DNA of 32,000 nucleotides from Patescibacteria group bacterium (GCA_028713575.1 JAQTOB010000007.1:1-32000); one strand, 5' to 3'. Positions 3,994-5,388 are shown, numbered from the stretch's first letter. A program made the numbers and translations. The notes: a model not told the origin generated them from the sequence alone.

Positions 3994-4039
3994 AATCTAT
4001 ACTCATATCATAAAATCCTGCTATAATAAAAGCAGGATT
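3994..4039 (+). repeat. 46-bp perfect direct repeat, copy 1 (left boundary of the GHKL/STAS cassette)
   Basis: AATCTATACTCATATCATAAAATCCTGCTATAATAAAAGCAGGATT is identical to 5343-5388. It contains the hairpin AATCCTGC/GCAGGATT and an extended -10-like TGCTATAAT. Confidence 0.95.
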
Positions 4040-4057
4040 AAAATTTGAGAAGTTATT

Positions 4058-4903
4058 ATGCAAACCATTGCGGTTTTAAAACCTAAAACAGAATCATTAA
4101 TTGCCCAATTTGTTTCTTTTTATCAAACTTTTTCCAAGATCAATAGGTTAGAAAAGGTTATTTTTGACTTTTCACAGTTAGGCTGGATTTACCCTTTAGT
4201 GATTTTGCCTATTAGCGCCTATATTCATGAGACTAAAAGTGAATATTTACCATCTCAAAGGAGCGATGTTAATTCTTATTTAAACACGGTTCGTTTTCCC
4301 GAGGGAGTTAATTCCGTTGCTGAATTTCAAAAATTTTTAAGTTATATTCCTGTTACTTCTTTAGAGAAATCAAAACAGGTAGAAAATAGAGAAAAATTAG
4401 AGTCTTGTTTTTCCACGATGCTTTATAAAACAATTAATGGAGTCGCGGGCTCCCAAGATGCGATTTATTATCCCATAACCGAGTTAGTGGGGAATATTTT
4501 TGAACATAGTAAAAAGGACAGAGGTTGGGTGTTTGCCCAAATATATCCTAATAAAAAATTTTTAGATTTATGTATCGTTGATACGGGAAGAGGATTAAGG
4601 AACTGTTACAAAGAGGAGAGGAATATCGTCTTAAATGATAAAGAAGCGGTTAAGGAGGCTGTGGACGGTCGCTCTACCAAACTGGATAAAGATAGAGGTT
4701 TTGGTATTTATAGTTCTAAACGAGTAATCTGCGAAGGATTAGGCGGCAGCTTTATTATATTATCCGGAAACGCGGCTTTGATTTCCGAGAAAAATAGAGA
4801 AAAATTGATGGAAATGCCATCTTTTAATTGGCAAGGCGTAATTATTAGTTATAGGATTCCGTTTCCGAAGCAAGCCATTGATATTTATCCTTTTTTAGAG
4901 TAG
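4058..4903 (+). CDS. GHKL (Bergerat-fold) ATPase/kinase-like protein of the SpoIIAB/RsbW type, with an N-terminal extension of about 135 aa
   Basis: N-box ITELVGNIFEHS, G1 box IVDTGRGL and G2-like RGFGIYSSKR occur in the order expected for anti-sigma-type serine kinases. The N-terminal half carries VIFDFSQLGWIYPLVILPISAY, which resembles the STAS-like core of the downstream protein. Confidence 0.7.
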   Translation: MQTIAVLKPKTESLIAQFVSFYQTFSKINRLEKVIFDFSQLGWIYPLVILPISAYIHETKSEYLPSQRSDVNSYLNTVRFPEGVNSVAEFQKFLSYIPVTSLEKSKQVENREKLESCFSTMLYKTINGVAGSQDAIYYPITELVGNIFEHSKKDRGWVFAQIYPNKKFLDLCIVDTGRGLRNCYKEERNIVLNDKEAVKEAVDGRSTKLDKDRGFGIYSSKRVICEGLGGSFIILSGNAALISEKNREKLMEMPSFNWQGVIISYRIPFPKQAIDIYPFLE

Positions 4904-4952
4904 GCTTGACCAATTAAAATATTTAATTATAATAACTACATTGGATATAAAT

Positions 4953-5303
4953 ATGCACAAAGAAAACATTACAATCATAGATATTGCTGAATCTATCGCT
5001 CCGATTATCTCGTCTCGCGATGTTATTGATAATTTCAAGAAGTCTATAAAAAGGGCTCCTGACGTTAATGTAGCTCTTGATTTTAGTAATGTTCAATTTA
5101 TTTCTCGTTCGGCAGCCCATCAGTTATTGAGCATTCGGGAAGAATTCGCCCATAAATGGCAAAATAAAAAAATAGTTTCTTTTACCAATACCGACAGTAA
5201 TGTGGCAAGTATGTTAAGATTGGTTGCCGCTAACAAGGTATTACCAAAGGGAAAAATAAAATTTAATGCGGAAACGATTAGTATTGAATCATTAACAATA
5301 TAG
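4953..5303 (+). CDS. STAS-like (DUF4325-like, anti-sigma-antagonist fold) protein
   Basis: About 116 aa. The core VALDFSNVQFISRSAAHQLL resembles the SpoIIAA/DUF4325 pattern (hydrophobic-D-hydrophobic-S/G-x-V-x-F-I/M-x-S-S). ATG 4953 is preferred over TTG 4941, though either is possible. Confidence 0.55.
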   Translation: MHKENITIIDIAESIAPIISSRDVIDNFKKSIKRAPDVNVALDFSNVQFISRSAAHQLLSIREEFAHKWQNKKIVSFTNTDSNVASMLRLVAANKVLPKGKIKFNAETISIESLTI

Positions 5304-5314
5304 ATTTGATATAT

Positions 5315-5339
5315 AACTTGGGAGTCGAGCTCCCAAGTT
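5315..5339 (+). terminator. Strong hairpin after the STAS-like gene (no T-run)
   Basis: AACTTGGGAG (5315-5324) pairs with CTCCCAAGTT (5330-5339) across a 5-nt loop. Confidence 0.5.
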
Positions 5340-5342
5340 GCT

Positions 5343-5388
5343 AATCTATACTCATATCATAAAATCCTGCTATAATAAAAGCAGGATT
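5343..5388 (+). repeat. 46-bp perfect direct repeat, copy 2 (right boundary of the GHKL/STAS cassette)
   Basis: Identical to 3994-4039, at an offset of 1349 bp. Confidence 0.95.

Follow-up and report, generated by a model that had tools for sequence, protein, structure and literature searches.

An effector-less kinase–STAS gene pair, probably related to CapK/CapS and VapK/VapS, in a repeat-bounded accessory cassette of Patescibacteria

We analyzed a 32,000-nucleotide stretch of DNA from a Patescibacteria group bacterium (GCA_028713575.1 JAQTOB010000007.1:1-32000; hereafter, the window), which contains a two-gene cassette bounded by two copies of a 46-bp repeat. The first gene, K, encodes a GHKL-type kinase with a STAS-like N-terminal domain, and the second, S, encodes a single-domain STAS partner. 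On balance, the pair is probably a stand-alone kinase-substrate switch of the class that contains CapK/CapS and VapK/VapS, carried as a small accessory cassette in an integration hot spot. Systems of this kind have been characterized since 2026, and the gene family is already annotated as "ATP-binding protein" plus "DUF4325/STAS-like protein". What is new here is the effector-less two-gene form, which makes up a distinct Patescibacteria clade, and the finding that its cassettes have copies of host sequence at their borders. K and S are inseparable in the genomes of Patescibacteria, Bacteroidota, DPANN archaea and methanogens, and on phages and plasmids.

The class has two characterized members. 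CapK is a kinase with helix-turn-helix (HTH), STAS, and GHKL domains, and capS, which encodes a repressor consisting of a STAS domain and a winged HTH (wHTH), is always the next gene (Chambers et al., EMBO J 2026; PMC13373217). Single-stranded DNA (ssDNA) activates CapK in a manner that requires W68 of its STAS domain; CapS is then phosphorylated at S54 on helix α2, and the downstream immune operon is de-repressed (PMC13373217). In the VapKSC system of Escherichia sp. E4736, VapK is a STAS-GHKL protein without an HTH, VapS is a 116-amino acid protein consisting of a STAS domain and a C-terminal tail, with S48 as phospho-acceptor, and VapC is a PIN toxin (PMC13373217). VapKSC protects against phage Bas42, and VapK is its sensor, not its toxin (PMC13373217). 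An older survey had described a PIN.4 group as "transcriptionally coupled to DUF4325 genes".

K and S have the following parts in the window:

4058..4903, + strand: kinase gene K, 281 amino acids, STAS-like N-terminal domain followed by a GHKL kinase domain (AlphaFold2 model, pLDDT 90, pTM 0.90)
4058..4441, + strand: N-terminal STAS-like domain of K, residues ~1-128, β-α-β-α-β-α in the AlphaFold2 model
4442..4900, + strand: GHKL (Bergerat-fold) kinase/ATPase domain of K, assigned from Pfam, Foldseek, and invariant columns
4906..4933, + strand: promoter-like TTGACC-16-TATAAT in the spacer between K and S, 11 of 12 consensus positions, a consensus match only
4953..5303, + strand: STAS partner gene S, 116 amino acids from its ATG, single STAS domain and short C-terminal tail (AlphaFold2 model, pLDDT 83)

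Both AlphaFold2 models were built with family alignments. Taken alone, the window K falls just under the Pfam threshold (HATPase_c, E 2e-4); in its family (n = 64), HATPase_c is matched in 49 members and HATPase_c_2 in 20. Residues that are invariant in the family form the N box (E142/N146/H150), the G1 box (D175/G177/G179), an S206-T-K208 motif, and the G2 box (R213/G214/G216). A first-pass annotation of this DNA, made from the sequence alone, had quoted the motifs ELVGNIFEHS, DTGRGL, and GFGIY; all are present and contain E142/N146/H150, D175/G177/G179, and G214/G216, respectively. Its assignment of GHKL and STAS folds to the two proteins likewise agrees with the Pfam matches of the families, the models, and Foldseek. 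In the Protein Data Bank (PDB), Foldseek matched K to GRP94/Hsp90, GyrB, WalK, and ZraS. We considered an Hsp90/MORC-type ATPase, as the top matches suggest, and regard it as less likely: Pfam gives HATPase_c and HATPase_c_2, and the nearest relatives are kinases. K has more than 120 homologues, and a kinase profile retrieves 5571, 1945, and 353 50%-identity clusters at E ≤ 1e-3, 1e-10, and 1e-30.

The kinase domain is preceded by an extension containing VIFDFSQLGW, a motif that the first-pass annotation had compared with the core of S. By sequence comparison, this extension is STAS-like. A profile of distant homologues retrieves "ATP-binding proteins" of ~320-350 amino acids, mostly from Pseudomonas, several of which carry Pfam STAS_2 or STAS, ahead of HATPase_c where the order is given. 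When the K family was aligned with this Pseudomonas-type protein using hhalign, the match extended over residues 5-269 with 99.5% probability, and the K stretch VIFDFSQLGWIYPLV aligned with VxLDASxLxFIDPLG of the homologues. N-terminal positions 20-96 of the distant-kinase profile match the STAS anti-sigma antagonist TM1442. Between the N-terminal domain of K and the partner STAS domain, hhalign detected a weak local match of 24 columns.

This domain contains the conserved motif D37-x-S39-x3-[W/F]43-x2-P46. Position 43 is Trp or Phe in 62 of the 64 members and is mostly aromatic in distant relatives. P46, also present in 62 of 64, sits in the motif alignment at the place of the phospho-serine of canonical STAS proteins. 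By analogy, W43 (codon 4184-4186) is a candidate counterpart of the ssDNA-contacting CapK W68 and of VapK F54. No HTH family was found in the Pfam matches or models of K or S, and the STAS-like domain of K begins at residue 1. A serine-recombinase-like catalytic domain was another candidate for this part of K; it was rejected, as the conserved residues are hydrophobic or proline, the domain aligns to STAS, and cassettes with other cargo share the repeats.

The partner has an alternative TTG start at 4941 that is also open. The window S alone is just under the Pfam threshold (STAS, E 1e-4) and has no match at E ≤ 1 to DUF4325 (PF14213), which is the partner type of the distant kinase homologues. 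Across the S family (n = 29), STAS is matched in 26 members, STAS_2 in 11, and DUF4325 in six. Foldseek matches of S in the PDB are almost only STAS domains, from SLC26 transporters, RsbS, TM1442, and SpoIIAA. Two groups of residues are invariant, S21-R22-D23 and F49-x-S51-R52-S53-A54, the latter at the N terminus of helix α2. The ISRS motif singled out in the first-pass annotation belongs to this second group (FISRS, with S51, R52, and S53). An [S/T]-x-S motif is kept across the partner superfamily: S51 is Ser or Thr, and S53 is Ser with a single exception among the diverse partners that we aligned. Judging from its match to the consensus, the promoter-like site in the spacer could give S its own transcription. 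Both genes are, from the pattern of coding divergence, functional and under purifying selection (dN/dS between the two cassette copies of the sister contig L001, described below, is 0.11 for K and 0.07 for S).

A scan of GTDB species-representative genomes gave 79 loci, mostly from many Patescibacteria classes, with distant ones in Bacteroidota, DPANN archaea, one Methanosarcinaceae metagenome-assembled genome (MAG), and others. S lies directly downstream of K on the same strand in 74 of these; the five exceptions are one contig end and the most remote kinases. From viral contigs, where 144 stretches matched, 80 loci were kept. In 79 of them S is directly 3′ of K, and the remaining locus ends at the kinase gene. 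The kinase gene in L054, L055, and L060, and in L055 also the STAS gene, is a single frame interrupted by in-frame stops, in MAGs labeled Saccharibacteria or Patescibacteria group. We rejected these stops as marks of pseudogenes, because a single frame reads through them throughout; genetic code 25 (UGA = Gly) is probable.

Several relatives are on mobile elements. Bacteroides phage BF1-TP2 encodes gp43 ("ATP-binding protein"), which is 31% identical to the window K, and gp42 ("DUF4325 domain-containing protein"), after its endolysin gene. In the Methanothermobacter prophage psiM100, the "inserted fragment IFa" (L177, 6594-9711; AF301375), which the GenBank record annotates as distinguishing psiM100 from psiM2, holds the kinase ORFB together with ORFC and, as the gene after them, ORFD; three 125-bp repeats lie alongside. 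ORFD has a match to the PADLOC candidate PDC-M11A (E 1.7e-119). A homologous pair is present on the Pseudomonas plasmid pBYT1-1, and in Pseudomonas and related genomes pairs occur at the ends of prophages and, in a type I restriction-modification (RM) operon, behind hsdS. A Nostoc plasmid encodes a GHKL-DUF4325 fusion protein.

No third gene or downstream gene cluster is conserved across the 75 loci for which we clustered four genes on each side: the commonest neighbor cluster occurs in only six loci, and the downstream genes are heterogeneous. Among the 140 immediate neighbors, the most frequent Pfam families were Fic (4; Fic-domain genes, 4-5), AbiEii (3), HTH_3 (3), and ribosomal L7/L12 (3), with a few RM or Cas4-like genes. 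The enrichment in defense islands that the first-pass annotation had raised is thus only modest in the Patescibacteria clade. The 25 families with at least two members among these neighbors include no sigma factor, PP2C, or PIN family, and no sigma factor or PP2C phosphatase was found in the 32-kb window. The description of the pair as self-contained, with no sigma factor or phosphatase nearby, therefore extends from the window to the neighbor families.

Searches of K and S with PADLOC and NCBIfam gave no system-level match, with weak partial hits to one DrmA and one DrmC model. In one larger protein, a STAS-GHKL module is fused to the C terminus of a DEAD/ResIII superfamily 2 helicase (P0338, 1266 amino acids); the module also matches the N-terminal part of the DISARM DrmA model PDLC02567. 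Together, these suggest the module as a nucleic-acid-linked sensor in other defense proteins.

Of the characterized systems, VapK/VapS has the architecture of the window pair. A broad partner profile, comprising Patescibacteria, Bacteroidota, archaeal, phage, and Pseudomonas DUF4325 proteins, has as its best PDB match 9z7o, "Escherichia VapS" (E 3.4e-6). As in VapKSC, the window kinase consists of STAS followed by GHKL with no HTH, and the partner gene is immediately downstream and encodes a STAS domain with a short C-terminal tail, 116 amino acids long in both systems. Both partners have conserved serine at the start of helix α2, and both kinases have a conserved aromatic residue in the STAS domain (VapK F54, with W43 of the window as its candidate counterpart). 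Unlike VapKSC, there is no VapC/PIN gene at the window pair or among the listed neighbor families of the ~75 related loci, sequence similarity is remote, and the column of VapS S48 holds Arg52. With CapK/CapS, the window pair shares the kinase-then-STAS gene order and the STAS-GHKL core of the kinase, and its relatives adjoin RM systems and sit in prophages; it differs in lacking the N-terminal HTH of CapK and the C-terminal DNA-binding wHTH of CapS, and neither it nor its relatives have a conserved immune operon downstream. The pairs of "ATP-binding protein" and DUF4325/STAS-like protein in BF1-TP2, psiM100, Pseudomonas prophages, and pBYT1-1 are, like the window pair, homologous, effector-less two-gene units at accessory sites. 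In contrast to these, the window clade is a separate, largely Patescibacteria branch whose members are ~40-70% identical to each other, and its partners mostly score Pfam STAS, not DUF4325. The suggestion of the first-pass annotation that the pair belongs to a conflict system fits this homology to CapKS and VapKSC.

By analogy with these systems, K would be inactive until it meets a nucleic-acid signal, most likely ssDNA arising from DNA damage or from infection by a phage. The groove between the STAS and GHKL domains of K would receive this signal, with W43 as a candidate stacking residue. K would then phosphorylate S53 or S51 of its partner, in the invariant S-R-S with which helix α2 begins, and phosphorylation would alter what the STAS protein binds. 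As the pair has neither the wHTH of CapS nor a VapC, the target would be K itself or a conserved factor of the host or of a phage, and the pair would act as a portable stress or abortive-infection-like defense module.

The site of the cassette contains the following features:

943..5342, + strand: accessory stretch that is missing from the empty-site relative; X, genes for Fic/RhuM, PNPOx-like, metallo-β-lactamase-fold, and 86-amino acid membrane proteins, 46-mer, K, and S
1002..1100, + strand: X element, second copy, 5′ of the Fic/RhuM gene; left boundary of the accessory stretch and position of a recombination breakpoint
3994..4039, + strand: left 46-mer, with an extended -10-like TGCTATAAT at 4019-4027; its last base is 18 nt before the kinase start codon
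5315..5339, + strand: perfect 10-bp hairpin AACTTGGGAG/CTCCCAAGTT after the STAS gene, the 3′ arm within the 15 nt AGCTCCCAAGTTGCT (5328-5342)
5343..5388, + strand: right 46-mer, followed by a T-rich tract; intrinsic-terminator score, with the terminator-like site at 5359-5392 and a T run after it
5413..5538, + strand: X element, between the 46-mer and the Wzy-like gene; direct repeats, part of a native intergenic unit duplicated at cassette boundaries
predicted circular-form junction of the cassette: ...GAGTCGAGCTCCCAAGTTGCT, 46-mer, AAAATTTGAG...

The 46-mer, AATCTATACTCATATCATAAAATCCTGCTATAATAAAAGCAGGATT, has exactly two copies in the window, and no third copy was found there with ≤3 mismatches (0 in 100 shuffles). 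An exact-match search and the open reading frame (ORF) calls agree with the first-pass annotation that the identical copies bracket two genes and a hairpin. Within the 46-mer is an 8-bp hairpin, AATCCTGC/GCAGGATT, with arms at 4014-4021 and 4032-4039 in the left copy and at 5363-5370 and 5381-5388 in the right; TGCTATAAT lies over the hairpin loop and the last part of the left arm. The right copy sits 162 nt upstream of the ATG of the Wzy-like gene (5551).

We scanned metagenome sequences with the 28-nt core of the 46-mer and obtained three further loci, L093, L094, and L095. L093 is an empty site that consists of ileS, a terminator hairpin, AGCTCCCAAGTTGCT, one identical 46-mer, X, and the Wzy-like gene. 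Its flanking genes are 79-87% identical to the window and the coding DNA adjoining the 46-mer is 79-80% identical, yet the 46-mer is identical. Comparison with L093 and L095 revealed that the 15 nt AGCTCCCAAGTTGCT directly precede the 46-mer in the empty site too. With ileS on one side and the Wzy-like gene on the other, the empty site shows that everything from 943 to 5342 is accessory. The GC content of this stretch is ~32-36%, versus 39-45% in ileS and the Wzy-like gene. The first-pass annotation had suggested looking for a single-46-mer site in relatives, and one exists; it had placed that site between the small membrane gene and the Wzy-like gene, where ileS turned out to be the left neighbor. 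Its idea that insertion may have duplicated a promoter also fits: in the empty site, a lone 46-mer precedes the Wzy-like gene.

In L095, a ~240-bp unit comprising the ileS terminator, the 15 nt, the 46-mer, and X is duplicated around a different 2.9-kb cargo, and L094 contains a near copy of the 46-mer in another context. X is single in L093, whereas in L095 and L001 a copy flanks the cargo at either end. Because the 46-mer is single in L093, surrounds other cargo in L095, and has a near copy in L094, it is, as far as sequence can tell, a conserved native element, terminator-like and promoter-like, that bounds hot-spot insertions and is not private to the pair. Thus, the 46-mer brackets the pair exactly, as had been noted, and as a boundary it is a piece of the ~240-bp native unit, which is also duplicated round unrelated cargo.

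The sister contig L001/L002 is 99.6-99.8% identical to the window over 1191-13295, to the right of X, whereas the ileS side (window 1-942, left of X) is merely 95% identical to L001. The difference in identity on the two sides indicates a recent recombination or transfer breakpoint at X. L001 contains the window's cassette and also a second copy, ~96.5% identical and likewise bounded by 46-mers, upstream of the Fic gene. All four 46-mers in L001 are identical, although dS is ~0.11 between its two cassette copies. An insertion sequence (IS; 8850-9908) with an rve-family transposase and a 6-bp target-site duplication, TAGGCT, lies at the stop codon of the second kinase copy in L001 (labeled copy 1). 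Both ORFs are intact, and the STAS gene retains the promoter-like site (TTGACT...), to which it remains joined.

From these comparisons, the point of entry of the cassette would have been the 46-bp element that separates ileS from the Wzy-like gene, with insertion either by Campbell-type recombination of a circular copy carrying the 46-mer or through a recombinase supplied in trans. Insertion would leave one 46-mer, with its -10-like TGCTATAAT, before the kinase and one before the Wzy-like gene.

Host-derived flanking repeats recur at other loci of the pair. In 67 species-level loci, we compared the 400 bp upstream of K with the 400 bp downstream of S and scored exact direct repeats of ≥20 bp. 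Such repeats flank the pair in 12 of the 67, compared with 0 of 1048 random same-length segments (P ~8e-16). Other two-gene units had them in 9 of 657 cases and single genes in 8 of 789; some two-thirds of these control positives are in loci where the pair itself has flanking repeats, several of them adjoining the pair. The repeats vary from genome to genome and consist of host sequence. In L073 (region 7457-9294), an intact tRNA-Lys (7514-7589) lies ahead of two 37-nt copies of its 3′ end (7907-7943 and 9258-9294). Between the two copies are a small ORF, a kinase gene with a frameshift, and an intact STAS gene; this arrangement bears the signature of tandem integration at a tRNA. The repeat in L020 and L061 is the 3′ end of the upstream coding sequence (CDS), and that in L024, 155 bp long and 89% identical, takes in a CDS end, a terminator, and TATAAT and has a perfect 38-bp core. 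In L042 (2171-6592), four copies of one 32-bp terminator/promoter repeat separate a two-gene unit ending in AbiEii, a pyrimidine nucleotidase with an HD protein, and the kinase-STAS pair, after which a PD-(D/E)XK nuclease follows. Similar multi-copy repeats are present in L017, L025, L040, L064, and L065.

The cassette is thus present, absent, or duplicated among close relatives, and its boundaries are copies of native intergenic DNA. The flanking repeats fit integration that re-creates its target, by a recombinase in trans or by Campbell-type recombination of circular copies that bear a short stretch of conserved host DNA. As in islands at tRNAs and gene 3′ ends and in integron arrays, direct repeats that copy the target bracket the cargo, and the cargo includes toxin-antitoxin (TA) and Abi genes; like integrons, L042 and L017 have tandem arrays with one shared repeat per genome. 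Unlike integrated islands and integrons, the cassettes contain no integrase and rarely have one nearby, and the units are only 1.3-1.6 kb. We rejected the flanking repeats as attC sites, as they are host terminator, promoter, or gene-end sequence, have no R′/R″ cores, and are identical within a genome. A literature search returned no description of such cassettes in Patescibacteria. The proposal that the pair is in mobile or accessory DNA is borne out by the single-46-mer empty site, the second copy in the sister strain, the flanking repeats, and the phage and plasmid relatives.

Several points weigh against a CapK/VapK-class switch carried on a mobile cassette. The ssDNA trigger, the phospho-acceptor, and the output are all taken by analogy, and the equivalence of W43 to CapK W68 has the status of a candidate. 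Profiles built from Patescibacteria alone reach no VapS and no solved STAS or kinase structure in the PDB by sequence; the VapS link therefore needs the broad profile and the DUF4325 matches in 6 of 29 family members. When the Patescibacteria STAS profile was compared with the VapS segment using hhalign, only the LDFSNV motif aligned. In the window S, the column of VapS S48 and SpoIIAA S58 is occupied by the invariant R52, flanked by S51 and S53, and thus the acceptor may differ or S may not be phosphorylated. In the Foldseek results for K, Hsp90/GyrB-type ATPases outrank kinases, so K may be an ATPase and not a kinase. Many of the Patescibacteria neighbors are housekeeping genes, and the defense enrichment is modest. 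A jackhmmer search of ~90 loci, seeded with XerD, lambda Int, and Gin, found a tyrosine recombinase within 8 kb in only three loci and no serine recombinase, a result on which we also rejected a linked integrase as carrier. Finally, one empty site fits insertion or deletion by repeat recombination alike.

Another reading of the pair, which we consider unlikely, is an addiction module in which K is the toxin and S the antitoxin. Freed K would phosphorylate or bind an essential host factor, S would hold it in check as a pseudo-substrate, and the pair would stabilize the cassette array or cause abortive infection without a further gene. The self-contained two-gene organization with no conserved partner is consistent with this, as are the arrays in which the pair stands beside AbiEi/AbiEii and other two-gene cassettes and the promoter-like site (4906-4933) that stays with S after the IS insertion in L001. 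Moreover, K is frameshifted or 5′-truncated with S intact in eight loci, and the reverse was seen in none. Set against this asymmetry, K is 2.4 times longer than S, which gives P ~0.06 for 8:0 by length alone, and some of the frameshifts may be MAG assembly errors. In VapKSC, the kinase is the sensor and not the toxin (PMC13373217).

We give still less credence to a more far-reaching version, in which the effector-less pair would be a complete immune or addiction module, with the ssDNA-sensing kinase or the phospho-STAS protein acting directly on a universal host or phage target. In Patescibacteria, the cassettes might spread without a dedicated integrase, as circular copies recombining at a short conserved host sequence (a tRNA end, the 3′ end of a conserved gene such as that for L7/L12, or a terminator-promoter element like the 46-mer), and would build integron-like defense/TA arrays. 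Direct action on a universally conserved target would explain why two genes suffice in Patescibacteria, DPANN archaea, Bacteroides phages, and Pseudomonas prophages.

Classical partner switching on the model of SpoIIAB/RsbW, to which the first-pass annotation had likened the motifs of K, would make K an anti-sigma factor that sequesters a sigma factor of the host, primary or alternative, encoded elsewhere; S would be its antagonist, and the pair an ordinary regulator and not a conflict system. The window pair does resemble SpoIIAB-SpoIIAA and RsbW-RsbV in its GHKL serine-kinase fold, its single-domain STAS partner, and the adjacency of the genes. HATPase_c_2, the SpoIIAB/RsbW-type model, is matched in 20 of 64 kinases; the fold of S resembles RsbS, SpoIIAA, and TM1442; JGI names some members "anti-sigma regulatory factor" and "anti-anti-sigma factor"; and in one locus (L005) the pair is 2.5 kb from rpoD. 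However, SpoIIAB and RsbW are single-domain GHKL anti-sigma kinases of ~140-160 amino acids, whereas K, at 281 amino acids, has a STAS domain of its own that they lack. No sigma factor or PP2C phosphatase is encoded in the window or among the listed neighbor families of the 75 loci, and the pair is accessory and mobile, not core: it varies between strains, is duplicated, is pseudogenized in places, and is found on phages and plasmids, which is not how core regulators behave. Because of the missing sigma factor and phosphatase and this accessory behavior, we regard partner switching on a sigma factor as very unlikely, and the CapK/VapK class, in which the kinase has its own STAS domain, is the better model.

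Equally poor are the prospects of a reading without mobility, in which the 46-mer is a local promoter/terminator copied by segmental duplication and an old pair was lost in relatives by repeat recombination: the unit duplicated in L001, which begins 7 nt ahead of the left 46-mer, includes the right one, reaches into X (window 3987-5538), and looks like a segmental duplication, the perfect 46-mer amid diverged DNA, which suggests a functional regulatory element, and the lack of a nearby integrase agree with it, but unrelated host tRNA and gene-3′-end repeats recur round the pair in at least 12 independent species, the neighborhood differs in almost every genome, L095 has other cargo between the same repeats, and relatives are on phages and plasmids.

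Other features of the site and window are as follows. The X repeat (also 975-995) extends over 82 nt at 89% identity, has the terminal palindrome GGGGTCAGACCCC, and precedes both the Fic and the Wzy-like genes. JGI calls a 65-amino acid minus-strand ORF over it; X could be a 5′ leader, part of an attachment (att) region, or a small gene. A search of 900-5700 with Rfam gave no match for the 46-mer or X, and the whole window yielded only three tRNAs. The RhuM/Fic-DOC protein (1251-2246) matches the PADLOC defense candidate PDC-S23 (E 5e-117). The gene after the pair encodes a Wzy_C/TPR membrane protein, and the remaining genes of the window are housekeeping: ileS, pgk, eno, two for cofactor-independent phosphoglycerate mutase (iPGM), secA/D/F, murJ, lepA, topA, and dprA. 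The two iPGM paralogues are in tandem (11130-12758 and 12999-14582). The spacer that separates the enolase gene from the first of them contains tandem self-similar repeats (~10768-11056), and their register varies relative to the sister contig. A gene for a 23S-rRNA-IVP-type four-helix bundle (9227-9460) lies between pgk and eno.

In CapKS and VapKSC, a STAS-GHKL kinase and its STAS substrate turn a signal of DNA damage into an immune output. That output is encoded in or next to the pair, as a wHTH or as VapC, and the window pair has neither. It belongs to a large superfamily of 5571 50%-identity clusters, with effector-less relatives in Pseudomonas prophages, plasmids, a Bacteroides phage, and an archaeal prophage. 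The target of the pair would show whether a kinase-STAS pair is itself the effector or is plugged into host machinery. For Patescibacteria, which are ultra-small, mostly uncultured, and poorly known in their immune repertoires, the pair adds a candidate stress or defense sensor. Short, integrase-free cassettes with copies of host tRNA ends, gene ends, or terminators at their boundaries, in some cases strung into arrays, suggest that small genomes may gain accessory genes by a route that has been little described.

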